A stretch of DNA of 64,000 nt from an uncultured Alphaproteobacteria bacterium (GTDB lineage Bacteria; Pseudomonadota; Alphaproteobacteria; RF32; CAG-239): positions 134,564-198,563 of the forward strand of contig CALXPT010000002.1 in assembly GCA_944390355.1 (NCBI GenBank). Direction: 5' to 3'. Below the pieces are notes generated by a model. It saw only the letters and a list, made by a program, of their open reading frames with translations. It was not told the DNA's origin and searched no databases. The position numbers and the translations under genes are program-made. Within the stretch, counting starts at the first letter, position 1, and every line of letters begins with the position of its first letter. This document shows positions 23,969-28,985 of this stretch, piece by piece.

Positions 23969-23997
23969 AAAGGGCACCGTTAAAACGATGCCCTTTT
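23969..23997. terminator. Bidirectional terminator containing the helicase stop codon
   Basis: AAAGGGCACCG/CGATGCCCTTT hairpin. Confidence 0.7.
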
Positions 23998-26454
23998 AAG
24001 ATTAGAGAAAGAAATTTTCTCAGCCGAAACACCCTCAACCGAAACAGTTGAATCAAAATTATCATTTTGAGAGGAAATATGAATTTCTTTGAGTTTGGAA
24101 TTAAAGCTAATCCCGTTGGACTTATCCCCGACAATATGAGCCTTGACGACCAAATCAGGATTTTGAATATCAATGTAGGAAGCCACAACCGGATTAATGG
24201 TTAAATTAACTTCGTTTCCGTTGATAAGGCCGAGATTCTTGAGCTTATCTTCACTAATGTTAACCGTTCCGTAAAAATTAGGCCGTTCCCGCCCAAGGAT
24301 ATCGAACAAATCAAAATCTTTTTTAGGGTTGGGAATAGACAAGACATTAGAAATGAGGTCGCGTTCTTGCTCTTTTTTAAGCGTATCGCTCCAAAAAGCA
24401 TCCGGAATATTGTTTTTTTCGATAAAGGCTTTAAATTCCGCAATGCCTTTTTCTTTAAGAATGTTCAATGCGTTGGCGACACGGGCATTAAACCCATCGG
24501 CAACAAAATCTTTCAATTCGTAATTGCTTATATAAGAAGAATCTAATATATGAAAATCTTTGTCGCTGTCAACACTTGAAATAATCTCAGGATTTTTAAG
24601 AATAAATTTTTTAATATCGTCCGTTGATAAAGAAGTAACATTTTCATAAATCGTAAAGGAGCGTCCGCCGTTTTTGGGCGTAATCACCCGCGGCTCGGCC
24701 AAGAAATTGTTGGAGCCGGAAACTGCGGAAGAATTAGAAATCTCATAAGAGTCTCGGTTAAAAATGTTTTGTCTGTCGATATTAAGTTTTTCAATATGAC
24801 CGGCGATGAGGCATTGACGCAATTTGTCATAATCAAACTCAAGCATATCGGTAGAAAAACGTACGCCGAGCCTGTGTCTCAAATCACGAATAAGCTCTTT
24901 AGTTTCAAAAAAGCGTTTTTTGTTAACGTTGTATTTATAAAAGATTTTATTCGTTTCATCTTCAAGCTTTTTCCTTTGCACACCGTCGCGTTTGAGTTTT
25001 TTCAAAGCTTTGTCTGCAGCAAGAAAAGCTTTGAGTCCGTCAAACAGGTCGGAAGAATCATCCAGCCCATGCCCCTGACGGAAGTTTTGTCGCAAATTTC
25101 CCTGTTCGGCGATTGCAACCATAACAAGAGCTTGAGGCAGACAATATTCTCTGCTTTGGGCGTATTTGAGAGTAACGGCATTTTCCACGGTAACCGGCAA
25201 GTCGTTGGCAAACTTTCCGAGCTTGGTGAGGTGACCGTCTTCATCAATGAGTTTAAGCCTTTTAAGTTTTGCTTTGGCGGCCAATAATTGTCCATGGTCG
25301 ATATATGCATCAAAATTCAAGTCCTCGGCTTTCAAATCAAAGCTAGCACAGTCCATAATCAAAGAAGAAAGCGGCAAACGAGAAATTTCCGGTGTGGTTT
25401 CTTTCGCGCGGTTTTTCCATCTAGTGTAAGACGCTAAAACAAAGATACCGTCAGTAAAGCGGCAGACACGTCCTTTTTGCTGTTGCAAACGCCATTGCGG
25501 TAGGTCTTGCTCTTTAAGAGCGATAGCCCCGCTTGAGGTAACAAAAAGGTCTTTTCCTTTTCCGGAAGTAATACCTGCATCCAACCAAGGAATATTCATA
25601 CCGCTTTCAATAACATTTGTACCGATAATAATTTTTCTAAAACCGTTCTTGGGTGATTTAAGAGCTTTGTCGCGTTCTTTTTTATCCATTTCACCATAGA
25701 TGGAAGCCACCTCAACGTCTTTAATGTCTTTTTCTAACAAGAGTGTTTCAATTTTATCTTTGGTTTCTTCAATGTTTGCGACACCGGATTCAAAAATGGC
25801 AATACCTTTGCGCTTTTTGTTCATGAGCAAATCGATAGAGTGTTCGGCAGCATCTTTGCTGTTGTCTTCAATGATTTCACAGTCATAAGTTCTGCCTTGT
25901 GCTTCAAAGGTATTGGGATTAAAGTCTCGCCAATATTCTTTTTGCTTTTCAAGGTTGATAGTAGCACTCATTTCAATAAGACGCAAAGCATCACCTTGCT
26001 TTTTACGATAGTGGAGCAGGGCTTTGGCAATGGACATATCCATAGAAGCCTCATGAACTTCATCGAGCACAATATTTTTTTCATAAAAAATCATACCGGA
26101 GCTGATGGCATAACCATAAGTGGCAAAAATAATTTTAGAATTTTTGCTAAACAGAGGCTCATCGCCGCCTTGAGTACCCACTGCATAACCCACCTCTTCG
26201 CCAAGGGTTCCGCCGGAGAGTTCGGAAACGGTTTCTGCGGCGTTAATCGCTAAAAATTTTCTTGGAACGAGCACAACAACACGCTCGTTGTCAGGAATTT
26301 TATCAGCAAGTTTGGCAGGGATTGTTAAAGTCTTACCGCTACCGGTAGGAGAAGAAATGATGGTAACATTATTATCAACCGAATCCATCACCGCATCGGA
26401 AATCTCATTAACCGGCAAATCCTTAAGTTTATCATTATATAGCGCTTCAAACAT
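23980..26454 (-). CDS. Divergent DEAH/RHA-family (HrpA/HrpB-like) SF2 helicase
   Basis: SPTGSGKT, VPRKFLA, GEEVGY, LDEVHE, MSAT, GTNVIESGMNI, QQQKGRVCR, PEISRLPL, LTKLGK; GGGAG RBS before ATG 26454. Confidence 0.88.
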   Translation of the reverse strand: MFEALYNDKLKDLPVNEISDAVMDSVDNNVTIISSPTGSGKTLTIPAKLADKIPDNERVVVLVPRKFLAINAAETVSELSGGTLGEEVGYAVGTQGGDEPLFSKNSKIIFATYGYAISSGMIFYEKNIVLDEVHEASMDMSIAKALLHYRKKQGDALRLIEMSATINLEKQKEYWRDFNPNTFEAQGRTYDCEIIEDNSKDAAEHSIDLLMNKKRKGIAIFESGVANIEETKDKIETLLLEKDIKDVEVASIYGEMDKKERDKALKSPKNGFRKIIIGTNVIESGMNIPWLDAGITSGKGKDLFVTSSGAIALKEQDLPQWRLQQQKGRVCRFTDGIFVLASYTRWKNRAKETTPEISRLPLSSLIMDCASFDLKAEDLNFDAYIDHGQLLAAKAKLKRLKLIDEDGHLTKLGKFANDLPVTVENAVTLKYAQSREYCLPQALVMVAIAEQGNLRQNFRQGHGLDDSSDLFDGLKAFLAADKALKKLKRDGVQRKKLEDETNKIFYKYNVNKKRFFETKELIRDLRHRLGVRFSTDMLEFDYDKLRQCLIAGHIEKLNIDRQNIFNRDSYEISNSSAVSGSNNFLAEPRVITPKNGGRSFTIYENVTSLSTDDIKKFILKNPEIISSVDSDKDFHILDSSYISNYELKDFVADGFNARVANALNILKEKGIAEFKAFIEKNNIPDAFWSDTLKKEQERDLISNVLSIPNPKKDFDLFDILGRERPNFYGTVNISEDKLKNLGLINGNEVNLTINPVVASYIDIQNPDLVVKAHIVGDKSNGISFNSKLKEIHISSQNDNFDSTVSVEGVSAEKISFSNLKRASF

Positions 26455-26514
26455 GTAACAATCTCCCAAAACAACATAGCTATAAATATATCACAAAAGA
26501 GGTCTTAAATAAAC

Positions 26515-26539
26515 AAAAAAACCACCCTAAAAAGGTGGT
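26515..26539 (-). terminator. Intrinsic terminator or attenuator at the 3' end of the candidate RNA
   Basis: ACCACC-tttttag-GGTGGT followed by a T-run on the minus strand. Confidence 0.75.
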
Positions 26540-26808
26540 CGGGAAGTTCGTAAATCATATTGAGTCAGATGATTCCGCAAATTTTTAAAACAAATGTCCC
26601 CAATTGCCAGACATTGTCTCTGTACATATATCTGCAGCTCCCCGACCATGGACATGTCACACGATCAAGGGGAATATAATACCGCCGAAAGGAATTTCAT
26701 CCCCAAAGCGATTTTATCGGTGTTATATTCCATCCACCGGACTCAATATGAAGGACTTACGACAGTCCCATACCTTTTCAGGTATGACCACGAAAAACCG
26801 TGATACAA
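26515..26808 (-). ncRNA. Candidate ~290-nt structured non-coding or leader RNA of unrecognised family
   Basis: At least seven stems whose G-U pairs and GAAA tetraloop favour the minus strand; bounded by a sigma70-like promoter and an intrinsic terminator; no ORF with a convincing RBS. Confidence 0.7.
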
Positions 26809-26813
26809 GGATA

Positions 26814-26842
26814 ATAATAGCATAGGATTAAAATAAAGTAAA
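26814..26842 (-). promoter_or_regulatory. Sigma70-type promoter of the candidate RNA
   Basis: TTTACT, 17-bp spacer, TATTAT, with an extended -10 TG. Confidence 0.65.
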
Positions 26843-26882
26843 GATGTTTTTATACAAAAAAATATAAAAATAGCCACAAAAA

Positions 26883-26913
26883 AATCCGTTTTCGAAAAAG
26901 AGAAAACGGATTT
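26883..26913 (-). terminator. Terminator of the ppiD-like gene
   Basis: AAATCCGTTTTC/GAAAACGGATTT hairpin with a T-run on the minus strand. Confidence 0.75.
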
Positions 26914-26933
26914 AGCAGATAAAACGAAAGCAA

Positions 26934-28796
26934 TTAGTCAGCCAAGCCCAATAATTTGTACTTGACGCGAACATCATAATTTTCGGCAAAACCGTCAATC
27001 AATGTGTCCGAAACCTCCGTCACAAGCTCACGACGAACCTGATTTCGGATATCCGCTTTTTCCTGATCGGTCAGCTTCTTTTTATAGTCCACCATCTCGG
27101 AGGTTACGGCAATAATTTTGCTGCCGTTAATTTCAATAAGTTTCGGAACATTAAGCCCTTCTTGGAAAAGCGCAACGATTTGAGAAGAGGGCAGCATTTC
27201 AAAACTTTCGGACTTTTTAATAGGCTTAGACTTATAAAGTTTCAAGCCCAAACGACCGGCCACGTCTTGAATATTTTCACCGTTGTCTAACTCATTCATG
27301 ACATCATTAGTGAGTTCCAAGGCCATGGCATCACGTTCATTAGCAGTCCATAGTTCAATAATTTTAGACTTAACGTCGTTTAACGGCAAGAGATGAGAGT
27401 CATAAATTTTGTTAACTTTAACCAATGCATAACCGGTGTCAGTCTCAATAATTTGTGAGATTTCTCCGACATTATAAGAAAAAGCGGCATCAACAATATC
27501 GGAAGACAAAGTTTTGTTATTGGCATAGTGCCCGTCTTCGGTTAAACCGGAAATATTGAAAATACTGAGATTTAATTCTTTGGCAAGATTTTCAAAAGTG
27601 GCACCGGCACCGATTTTATCTTCGATTTGGTTAGAAAATTCATAAGAAATATCATAAGCTTTTTCTTTTTTAATAGAATCAGCAGCTTTCTGGCGAGCTT
27701 TTCCGGCCTCCATTTTAGTAGCTTTGGTTTCGGAAATAACTTTGGCGATATGCCATCCGAATTCGGAATGAATAGGTCCGACAATAGTATTTAACGGAGC
27801 GGAGAACACCTCATCGGCAATTTCTTCAAGCAGCATATCTTTGGAAACGGAACCAAGATTGGTATCTTGTTCAGATTGCTGGGCCAAAGACTTAGCAACC
27901 TGATAAAAATCCGCCCCGTTTTTGAGTTCATTGAGAGCTTTTTGAGCCGTATCTTCATCATTAAAGGCCATTTGCAAGACCTTACGTTTGGCAGGAGTTT
28001 CGAACAAATCGGCATGCTGCTTGTAATAGGCCTCGATTTCGGCATCGCTGGGCTGATATTGATGAGCGATTTCATCGGTAGAAATTTCGATATAAGAGAT
28101 GTCTCTTTTTTCGGGAGCCATAAAACGATCGGAAAAATCTTGATAATATTGTTCTAATTCATCATTAGAAATTTGCCGAGTTGTTTTCATCTGGGAAGGA
28201 ACAATTTTAACATAAGAGAAAATTCTTTCTTGGTTTTCGATTTTTCCGAGCAAATCGGTCAGGAAAGCCGGCACATTGATGCGTCGGGCAGGATTTTGCA
28301 CCAACATCTGACGTTCGATATCCAAACGCAAGGCTTTAACATAATCTTGTTCGCTCCAACCGGTAGCATTAAGCATCATGTTAAAACGGTTTCTGTCAAA
28401 GCGGCCGTTAGCATCCATAAATTCGCTCTGGGAATAAATAATTTTGCGGATTAAATCATCACCGATGACAATATCATTTTGCTGTGCGGTAACTTGAATA
28501 ATGGCATTAGCGACTTCGCGTTGAACAATGCTCAAAAGCAGAGTGTTTCGCACTTCATCGTTAATATCCAAATTATCACCGAACATTTTTCTGGCACTGT
28601 TAAGCTCTTTGTCGAAGAGATAAGAGATTTCTCCTTGAGAGAGTTCAATATTGTCAACCTTAATAACATTGCGATTCTCACCGGCGCTGTTAATATAGCC
28701 GGAAATACCGAACAACGACATGAAACTCAGAGCCGTTAAGATAAAAATAGACTTAGCCACCCAAGAATCCTGCATTTTTCTGATTTTACTCATCAT
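26934..28796 (-). CDS. ppiD: PpiD-like periplasmic chaperone/parvulin peptidyl-prolyl isomerase
   Basis: N-terminal transmembrane anchor, SurA-like N domain (GRFD, PEKR), parvulin GPIHSEFGWH; divergent from tpiA. Confidence 0.85.
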   Translation of the reverse strand: MMSKIRKMQDSWVAKSIFILTALSFMSLFGISGYINSAGENRNVIKVDNIELSQGEISYLFDKELNSARKMFGDNLDINDEVRNTLLLSIVQREVANAIIQVTAQQNDIVIGDDLIRKIIYSQSEFMDANGRFDRNRFNMMLNATGWSEQDYVKALRLDIERQMLVQNPARRINVPAFLTDLLGKIENQERIFSYVKIVPSQMKTTRQISNDELEQYYQDFSDRFMAPEKRDISYIEISTDEIAHQYQPSDAEIEAYYKQHADLFETPAKRKVLQMAFNDEDTAQKALNELKNGADFYQVAKSLAQQSEQDTNLGSVSKDMLLEEIADEVFSAPLNTIVGPIHSEFGWHIAKVISETKATKMEAGKARQKAADSIKKEKAYDISYEFSNQIEDKIGAGATFENLAKELNLSIFNISGLTEDGHYANNKTLSSDIVDAAFSYNVGEISQIIETDTGYALVKVNKIYDSHLLPLNDVKSKIIELWTANERDAMALELTNDVMNELDNGENIQDVAGRLGLKLYKSKPIKKSESFEMLPSSQIVALFQEGLNVPKLIEINGSKIIAVTSEMVDYKKKLTDQEKADIRNQVRRELVTEVSDTLIDGFAENYDVRVKYKLLGLAD

Positions 28797-28985
28797 GGCG
28801 AGATATATCCTTAAAATTAATAAAACGAATAAAAAAAACTGACAGGAGAATAATATAAAAAGCAAAGTTCTTCAAGATAAATAAACAAAGCGTTAACAAA
28901 AATATTGCAAAAATAATTTTTTTAGTGGAAATAAAAAAAATCTTATGCTACAACACAAGCATTATAACAACAAAAAGAGGGAAAA

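Follow-up and report, generated by a model that had tools for sequence, protein, structure and literature searches.

An RNA of ~290 nucleotides (nt), encoded on the minus strand of a 64,000-nt stretch of DNA (the window; contig CALXPT010000002.1 of assembly GCA_944390355.1, positions 134,564 to 198,563) from an uncultured alphaproteobacterium of the GTDB lineage RF32; CAG-239, is a long-form member of a widespread, multi-copy family of pseudoknotted 5′-leader RNAs. The RNA lies in a self-contained transcription unit (26513-26842), in which a promoter is followed by the RNA and a terminator. It is a real, expressed and strongly covarying RNA that belongs in kind to the structured cis-regulatory leaders, with sRNA-Xcc1, a small RNA (sRNA; Rfam family RF02221), as its nearest catalogued relative; a riboswitch-like antitermination switch is, as judged from sequence, its most likely mode of action. 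The family is large and very widespread, stands outside Rfam 15 and is apparently uncatalogued. A model that had read only the letters of the window (the original prediction) flagged the unit as a novel structured RNA. A real structured RNA it is, although not a unique free-standing gene but one long member of a family of leaders, and its novelty, which stands in that no Rfam 15 family matches at gathering score, is limited by a resemblance of its architecture, below threshold, to that of sRNA-Xcc1.

A three-way junction locked by two pseudoknots

Folding of the 296-nt RNA gave -107.3 kcal/mol, compared with -77.2 +/- 4.9 kcal/mol for 200 shuffled sequences (z = -6.19), none of which was as stable. 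The pseudoknotted model, the elements of which are listed in Table 1, was tested on an independent MAFFT alignment of nine long-form homologues, in which 88.7-89.0% of cells paired and 29/80 to 32/88 pairs had changed on both sides; these values were reached by 0/500 shuffles, and slid partners paired in only ~40%. RNAalifold analysis of 30 MAFFT-aligned cores returned a three-way junction composed of P1 (10 base pairs, bp), P2 (8 bp), P4 (6 bp) and a variable hairpin, P3, with a conserved internal loop after P2 (10 nt in its 5′ strand and 5 nt in its 3′ strand). In an alignment of 95 sequences from many lineages, which was fitted to the model and so favours pairing, 96.8% of cells paired and 21/29 pairs changed on both sides (8/8 in P2, 5/5 in P3 and 5/6 in P4), with a covariation score of 0.58 that was reached by 0/500 shuffles and compared with at most 0.12 in slid controls. 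P1 was paired in 99.8% of cells in the same alignment, its sequence being almost invariant. G-T wobble pairs are frequent (47/95 at one P1 position, for example), and the structure therefore works on this strand only.

Upstream of the junction, one pseudoknot (PK1) joins the strand immediately 3′ of hairpin H3 to the loop of P4, and a second (PK2) joins the loop of H3 to the junction strand J4/1, with a small H-type pseudoknot (S1/S2) between PK1 and P1. Across the family, a complementary Watson-Crick run of at least 8 was found for PK1 in 108/141 members (mean run 8.58, versus 6.08 in shuffles), formed by 118 distinct strand sequences that usually lie 60-100 nt upstream of P1, and 103/108 of the PK1-bearing members have at least 6 matches for PK2 at a fixed distance, in at least 25 sequence variants. 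The S1/S2 layout recurs, with other sequences, in distant members as compared by eye. The conserved fold is thus a three-way junction (P1 closing; P2, internal loop and P3; P4) locked upstream by two pseudoknots.

Much of this pairing had been recognised in the original prediction, and the checks that it proposed (folding, and a search for homologues with covarying pairs) bore it out: the stability is exceptional, homologues exist and their pairs covary. All three 5′ hairpins were located in the sequence and in the fold, and the minimum-free-energy fold contains the 14-bp arm (26718-26731 with 26671-26684) as well as the 11-bp G-U-rich arm (26660-26670 with 26640-26650). The 12-bp long-range helix (26740-26751 with 26555-26566) pairs perfectly, as claimed, but what it forms is a pseudoknot with the P4 loop. 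Likewise the third hairpin is present, and its loop makes the second pseudoknot, which had been overlooked.

Three helices that exclude one another

Three successive helices of the unit exclude one another: that of strand A with the P1 5′ strand, P1 itself, and the terminator, whose stem has positions 26537-26540 in common with P1. Both conformers are kept in the nine long forms (P1 96.7%, the A helix 90.9% and the terminator 100% paired). The same layout was found across the family. An upstream complement to the P1 5′ strand beats 95/100 shuffles in 99/142 members. A hairpin that resembles a terminator and has a T tail was seen in 79/142, and in 77/79 of these at least 3 of its bases belong to the P1 3′ strand as well; this hairpin follows 72/82 AT-rich cores versus 7/60 GC-rich cores. 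Complementarity of the P1 3′ strand to downstream sequence beat shuffles in 30/142 members, in a weak test in which the left arm of the terminator was cut off. The fold of the original prediction, like the minimum-free-energy fold, is the terminated conformer, and P1 is the antiterminator; the prediction was correct for that conformer but missed P1 (26638-26647 with 26537-26546), which rivals both the 11-bp arm and the terminator.

From these features, the unit is probably a transcription attenuator of a riboswitch-like kind that acts in cis on the next co-oriented gene, in this case one for an HrpB-like helicase. During transcription the local A hairpin would form first and would leave the P1 3′ strand free, so that the terminator is completed; the default state would be OFF, and a discrete short RNA would build up. 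An effector that steadies the docked junction and pseudoknots would allow P1 to form, whereupon the terminator would lose its left arm to P1 and transcription would continue into the gene (ON). In GC-rich members, a purine-rich ribosome-binding site and a start codon were seen by inspection, uncounted, 10-30 nt past the P1 3′ strand, which suggests that in these relatives the P1 3′ strand faces the Shine-Dalgarno sequence and that the same logic operates on translation. Many members from Rhizobiales, Sphingomonadales and Acidobacteria lack a terminator and have instead a second, small and highly conserved hairpin (stem GCGG/CCGC) with a G-rich 7-nt loop, located between core and start codon ~20-50 nt after the core (loci L082, L086, L093, L112 and L122).

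The resemblance to riboswitches and attenuators is considerable: co-oriented genes have in their 5′ leaders a conserved, covarying, pseudoknotted domain of sensor-like appearance, part of whose closing helix also belongs to the terminator, and a third competing strand lies upstream. Many copies per genome before varied genes, with tandem copies too, are likewise a feature of some riboswitches, the second-messenger riboswitches being known for all three. Unlike riboswitches, the leader family has a P1 that is invariant in sequence rather than freely covarying, and its downstream genes point to no single pathway or signal.

The leading candidate for the effector is a small molecule or an ion, a tentative choice held at somewhat less than even confidence, with a protein or another RNA as the alternatives. 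A cis switch with such a macromolecular effector (an antiterminator protein, a ribosome or 30S subunit, or another RNA) is suggested by the near-invariant P1 strands and junction bases, which across phyla look like a target of sequence-specific recognition, by the likeness of the P1 5′ strand to a Shine-Dalgarno sequence and of the 3′ strand to its complement, and by contexts that are mobile-element cargo and not a metabolic pathway. The invariance of P1 may, however, also stem from its having three different partners to pair with; no protein is consistently encoded beside the element, and its spread over Alphaproteobacteria, Acidobacteria, Verrucomicrobia, plasmids and viral contigs would need a protein that is universal or carried along. 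A macromolecular effector is rather unlikely.

Cyclic di-GMP (c-di-GMP) was considered as a ligand because the gene set includes adhesin, pilin-like and PAS-sensor genes and this genome, which has 4 GGDEF genes, has no PilZ domain. As a universal ligand it is unlikely: 2/18 other motif-bearing genomes of the class sample, both at least 99% complete, have no GGDEF gene (E<=1e-5), and one of the two carries a typical family member. GGDEF was called no more common in motif-bearing genomes (16/18) than overall (111/151), and no known c-di-GMP model matches.

Size and distribution of the family

A DNA search of relatives recovered full-length homologues of the flagged RNA in the same genus at 69-78% identity, together with a second long-form copy in this genome, and many more places were matched by just the final 70 nt; alignment of these places revealed a shared core of ~145 nt, which is more than a terminator. 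A covariance model built from this core (R1) detected 7 copies in this 1.7-Mb genome. Among genomes of the order, 141/151 were positive (140/149 in the window's own family and 0/1 in the other family), and matches numbered at least 695, no more than 18 being scored in any genome. In a class-wide sample of one genome per family, R1 was positive in 19/151 genomes, and in 17/149 families besides the window's own; this count takes in one unpublished genome (G201), on which no specific result rests. The second long-form copy (L029:1612-1776 (+), corresponding to G000:C38:2550-2714) is diverged, scoring 36.6 bits with R1. DNA of the window organism is present in chicken-gut and other gut metagenome runs.

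An exact pattern of the core was found in at least 120 stretches of species-representative genomes. Among the matches listed, those in Alphaproteobacteria include Rhizobium, Shinella, Microvirga, Devosia, Sphingomonas, Ruegeria, Xanthobacter, Micavibrio, Rickettsia tamurae and metagenome-assembled genomes (MAGs) from the gut, and others lie in Acidobacteria such as Granulicella rosea, in Verrucomicrobia MAGs and in one Flavobacteriaceae MAG. Between phyla the P1 strands hardly vary, and nor do several bases of the junction. The exact pattern also occurs on 26 IMG/VR viral contigs, and a distant DNA search of plasmids returned 271 records, among them 122 from Agrobacterium and 63 from Rhizobium. 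The Rhizobium etli plasmid pC carries a match of 60 bits upstream of the gene for a putative regulator, close to traA. On the Ti plasmid pTiAg57 (NZ_MZ773647.1), a diverged core with a weak score of 25.1 bits (L201:6018-6095 (+)) stands immediately upstream of traM, an anti-activator of Ti-plasmid conjugation that adjoins traA-traF-traB-traH.

The plasmid records bear on the possibility that the element works as single-stranded DNA on mobile elements, as a single-strand promoter, an initiation site or a recombination site: 227/271 matching records are typed conjugative, both inspected plasmid contexts lie within a few kb of traA, and viral contigs carry the element as well. This reading is extremely improbable, since the many G-T wobbles would be C-A mismatches on the opposite strand, the unit has a promoter, a terminator and an RNA-library depth above that of its neighbours, and most copies in this genome and in its taxonomic family are chromosomal and stand before ordinary genes.

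Full-text literature searches returned no description of the motif; they were narrow, and this is not proof that the motif is unpublished. None of the terms looked up was found in the portions consulted of two Breaker-laboratory discovery papers (PMC11109978 and PMC8632094).

Genes behind the leaders

In a census of 60 loci, a co-oriented open reading frame (ORF) with a motif like a ribosome-binding site followed within 300 nt in 58/60, mostly 40-60 nt after P1, with starts 20-60 nt past the element. A candidate ORF of this kind also follows 73/81 instances in a broader set, where some calls at GC-rich loci look spurious, and 24/26 of the viral contigs. The loci counted are the best-scoring ones and many are related, so that the counts are not independent. 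In this genome the copies precede the HrpB-like helicase, a 427-residue protein, three XRE-type helix-turn-helix regulators and an autotransporter. Elsewhere the downstream genes are autotransporter-like in 17/60 loci; others code for lipoproteins and pilin-like proteins, PAS sensors, a DNA methylase or a serine recombinase, and many for small proteins that are secreted or have no assignment. By a crude heuristic, an N-terminal hydrophobic segment was called in 73/145 downstream proteins versus 471/1452 background ORFs of this genome.

A single conserved partner gene was considered and rejected, as the products encoded behind the closest long forms make up several groups between which there is no relationship or only local similarity; none of them matched a Pfam, NCBIfam or PADLOC family. 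The same three collections gave no family for the 427-residue protein behind the second long-form copy. Proteins behind other long-form homologues are equally without a family, and some share a similar short N-terminal motif.

Tandem copies stand before a single gene. The seventh copy in this genome is one of these and lies 0.5 kb upstream of one of the XRE copies (L032:1454-1594 (-) and L032:2095-2241 (-), corresponding to G000:C1:71453-71593 and 72094-72240), with a spacer that contains short C-rich direct repeats and no convincing ORF. Further tandems were seen at L111 (601-690 and 1010-1099) and L146 (265-415 and 572-715).

Coverage of the unit in RNA libraries

Contigs assembled from four RNA-library runs of two studies covered the RNA only (26564-26792, 26545-26782, 26540-26784 and 26515-26787), with depths of 38.6, 11.2, 9.15 and 2.26, and separate contigs covered the helicase gene at a depth of 2.6 and ppiD at 5 and 2.1. 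The lower ends of the contigs over the RNA fell at 26515-26564. The fourth contig comes from a related strain and extends 20 nt beyond the terminator into different sequence. A transcript confined to the unit, as the original prediction had anticipated, is thereby backed, and the coverage supports, without deciding, that the RNA is real and expressed; a mostly terminated leader and a free-standing sRNA both fit. Stretches with no RNA contigs are no evidence of silence. At position 26679, in the 3′ strand of S2, the RNA contigs of two runs have G and the window has A, which may be a strain difference.

The alternative is a free-standing, trans-acting sRNA that stands before genes only by way of mobile-element cassettes and that titrates a protein or uses, for instance, its C-rich P1 3′ strand to pair with other mRNAs. 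It agrees with the unit's own promoter and strong terminator, and with RNA contigs that are confined to the unit and deeper than those on neighbouring genes. The nearest family has been seen by Northern blot as a discrete RNA of ~88-100 nt, mapped at 88 nt, in the part of the report consulted (PMC2996969). A free-standing sRNA would, however, leave the co-oriented ORFs in 58/60 loci and 73/81 broad-set instances unaccounted for; it needs neither the overlap of terminator and P1 (77/142) nor the competing strand (99/142), and GC-rich members mostly lack a terminator (53/60) and run straight into the ribosome-binding site. A trans-acting sRNA in place of a leader is thus quite unlikely, and the two roles are in any case compatible, because terminated leaders can also work in trans. 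The published view of sRNA-Xcc1 is reportedly that of a free-standing trans-acting sRNA, a 2011 paper in RNA Biology being said to term it trans-acting in its title.

Comparison with sRNA-Xcc1 and other known RNAs

At gathering score, Rfam 15 matched only two tRNAs in the whole window, and at E<=10 the region 26400-26960 gave chance-level matches only, with no T-box and no known ribozyme family; other members of the leader family had no Rfam 15 family above threshold. The original prediction had set aside RNase P, the signal recognition particle (SRP) RNA, transfer-messenger RNA (tmRNA), 6S RNA and the common riboswitches, and rightly so. A divergent housekeeping RNA was rejected, as RNase P (274.4 bits), 6S (55.8 bits), alpha_tmRNA (79.7 bits) and SRP (71.3 bits) all sit elsewhere in the genome above their cut-offs, and no riboswitch, T-box or leader family known to Rfam 15 matches. 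The organism has a two-piece tmRNA, and a partial alpha_tmRNA match below the cut-off (44.2 bits, G000:C17:28341-28584) was seen 0.7 kb upstream of the tmRNA gene.

The leader family shares with raiA, ROOL, GOLLD, HEARO and OLE a complex conserved fold of 150-290 nt, pseudoknots and the lack of a known biochemical function; no Rfam match to any of these five was found on the flagged RNA. It differs from them in having a clear expression platform and a cis position. Most of these large RNAs are not known to have either.

The only Rfam family that ever matched the core was RF02221, always below its gathering score of 53 bits. A cmscan comparison of the flagged RNA, which the original prediction had proposed as a check, gave it as the best match at 22.7 bits (E 0.18); a more distant member from the class reached 26.9 bits and GC-rich members 31.6-36.3 bits. 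The cmscan alignments and the RNAalifold consensus agree in the order of helices, true sRNA-Xcc1 members being compared by eye: a closing P1 of 9-10 G+C-rich pairs, P2 with internal loop and P3, P4, a short junction, and the P1 3′ strand. Like the leader family, sRNA-Xcc1 has a co-oriented ORF with its ribosome-binding site directly downstream, is present in several copies and is associated with mobile elements, namely integron cassettes and genomic islands. According to the portions consulted of the respective reports, it is found upstream of symE, in the integron cassette that is most widespread in Xanthomonas (bioRxiv 10.1101/2025.06.18.660453), occurs in Xylella in seven copies, of which a single island holds five (PMC12189769), and has an Rfam structure refined with R-scape (PMC11701678). 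The portions consulted of these three reports and of PMC2996969 do not treat sRNA-Xcc1 as a cis-acting leader.

The two groups also differ. The internal loop reads GTATGTNCA / TAAAG in the leader family and GAATACAA / AAATMAG in sRNA-Xcc1, and sRNA-Xcc1 loci have, by eye, short P4 loops and no visible upstream H3, PK1, PK2, S1/S2 or strand A. True sRNA-Xcc1 copies were found in 24/151 genomes of a phylum sample, and R1 searched against 20 loci with bona fide sRNA-Xcc1 gave 1 weak match (11.9 bits, E 0.55). Full membership in sRNA-Xcc1 was rejected, as the scores lie below the 53-bit threshold, the bases of internal loop and junction differ and the reverse test with R1 fails. Two copies in a 0.9-Mb alphaproteobacterial genome (G237; L223:272-410 and L224:249-382) have the P1, P4 and terminator of the family together with an internal loop like that of sRNA-Xcc1, and may be intermediates that hint at common descent. 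RF02221 also gave two sub-threshold matches of 73 nt in the window's genome (35.6 bits at G000:C7:72127-72199 and 31.7 bits at G000:C7:18391-18463), outside the 7 motif copies; a length of 73 nt suggests that the two are tRNA-like sequences.

The mapped length of sRNA-Xcc1, 88 nt in the part of PMC2996969 consulted, is close to the 87 positions of RF02221 and fits the size of the P1-closed core. This would suit a self-cleaving or otherwise catalytic RNA that processes its transcript, for instance by releasing the core as a short RNA, and so would the compact pseudoknotted fold, the near-invariant junction bases and the multi-copy, mobile-element-associated distribution. Bacterial self-cleaving ribozymes are typically multi-copy and associated with mobile elements. 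Catalysis is nevertheless very improbable, given that no known ribozyme family matched at E<=10, that the RNA contigs span the 5′ hairpins and the core without a break, and that three competing helices and a terminator are explained by a switch and not by cleavage.

Layout of the unit and its flanks

The promoter had been placed correctly in the original prediction: both boxes lie on the minus strand where indicated, with 9/12 matches in a consensus scan and a TG before the -10 box, and both are kept in the alignment of close homologues. Transcription probably starts near 26806-26808. The first hairpin, H1, is present in every homologue, but its sequence is unalignable (42.6% paired in the alignment of nine long forms). 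The intrinsic terminator that ends the unit was likewise found where expected, at 26540-26520 followed by a T run. The ppiD terminator (26913-26882), also foreseen, insulates the RNA unit from the upstream gene. Downstream, the helicase gene begins with an ATG at 26454 that is preceded by a GGGAG resembling a ribosome-binding site. Its product has DEAD, ResIII and Helicase_C domains and is HrpB-like; the HrpB and HrpA models match the N-terminal half only and score far below their NCBIfam cut-offs, and no family was matched by the C-terminal 370 residues.

Table 1. Elements of the flagged unit and its flanking genes, in window coordinates; percentages of paired cells refer to the alignment of nine long forms
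Feature	Position	Strand	Remarks
Promoter	26814..26842	-	-35 TTTACT 26837-26842, 17-nt spacer, TG-extended -10 TATTAT 26814-26819
H1, variable 5′ hairpin (ATCACGG/TCGTGGT)	26787..26804	-	From the fold
H2 hairpin (CATACCT-GAAA-AGGTATG)	26769..26786	-	90.3% paired
H3 hairpin (GGACT/AGTCC)	26753..26768	-	94.7% paired; 3/5 pairs change on both sides
H3 loop, PK2 5′ strand	26758..26762	-	PK2 95.5% paired
PK1 5′ strand	26740..26751	-	Partner 26555-26566; 100% paired; 5/8 pairs change on both sides
Upstream H-type pseudoknot S1/S2	26671..26739	-	S1 97.6%, S2 85.7% paired
S1	26735-26739 with 26718-26722	-	Part of the H-type pseudoknot
S2	26723-26731 with 26671-26679	-	Part of the 14-bp arm 26718-26731/26671-26684
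Hairpin inserted in the H-type pseudoknot (long form)	26689..26704	-	
Strand A (anti-antiterminator)	26660..26670	-	Partner 26640-26650; 90.9% paired
P1 5′ strand (GGTCGGGGAG)	26638..26647	-	Nearly invariant across the family; P1 96.7% paired
P2	26630-26637 with 26575-26582	-	Whole P2 region 26575..26637; 92.6% paired
Conserved internal loop enclosed by P2	26621-26629 and 26583-26586	-	
P3, variable hairpin enclosed by P2	26587..26620	-	82.7% paired
P4 hairpin	26553..26574	-	98.1% paired
PK1 3′ strand	26555..26566	-	P4 loop and part of the P4 3′ arm
Junction J4/1	26547..26552	-	26548-26552 form the PK2 3′ strand
P1 3′ strand (CTTCCCGACC)	26537..26546	-	Last 4 bases are the first 4 of the terminator stem
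Intrinsic terminator	26513..26540	-	Stem-loop 26520-26540, then T run; 100% paired
Downstream co-oriented gene, presumed regulated, HrpB-like DEAH-box helicase	23980..26454	-	TIGR01970 164.9 bits (curated cut-off 546)
Upstream PpiD-like gene	26934..28865	-	Domain matches Rotamase_2 and SurA_N_3
Terminator of the PpiD-like gene	26882..26913	-	Terminator scan

Weighing of the attenuator reading and its meaning

Several points weigh against a cis-acting attenuator. No examined contig links the RNA to the helicase gene; the contigs show an abundant short RNA without read-through, a picture that agrees just as well with a free-standing sRNA. True ends, strand and level are beyond what contigs can show, and RNA libraries may be contaminated with DNA. 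The 95-sequence alignment was fitted to the model, the loci of the gene census are the best-scoring and often related, and ORFs called at some GC-rich loci look spurious. No metabolic clue comes from the downstream genes, which are of very many kinds (autotransporters, lipoproteins, pilin-like proteins, XRE regulators, methylases, recombinases, the helicase and many without assignment), and the Shine-Dalgarno variant comes from inspection of sequences and not from a count. The near-invariance of P1 is unusual for the closing helix of a riboswitch and could mean recognition by a macromolecule. Nor does any gene set behind the leaders point to a ligand.

The attenuator reading can be taken further, as a conjecture held with less than even confidence. 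The leader family, with sRNA-Xcc1 as its stripped-down sister, would form a new and widespread class of ligand-sensing RNA, carried mainly on mobile or accessory cassettes of Alphaproteobacteria, Acidobacteria and Verrucomicrobia, on conjugative plasmids and in prophages. It would read a conserved intracellular signal by means of a three-way junction with a double pseudoknot, outside the catalogued riboswitches, and would turn on the cargo (adhesins, XRE and TraM regulators, recombinases and small secreted proteins).

If the attenuator reading is true, a large class of regulatory RNA with an uncommonly intricate fold, outside Rfam 15, would be present on 271 plasmids, on phage-like contigs and in hundreds of genomes that span three phyla or more. 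The class would control genes for host colonisation and gene transfer, such as those for autotransporter adhesins in gut Alphaproteobacteria and for XRE regulators and, through its leader, traM of a Ti plasmid, and sRNA-Xcc1, so far a trans-acting sRNA linked to virulence, would become the minimal member of a family of cis-acting leaders. The anatomy described here names the helices to mutate and so makes the question of a switch directly testable, and the effector could reveal the signal by which mobile elements time the expression of their cargo.

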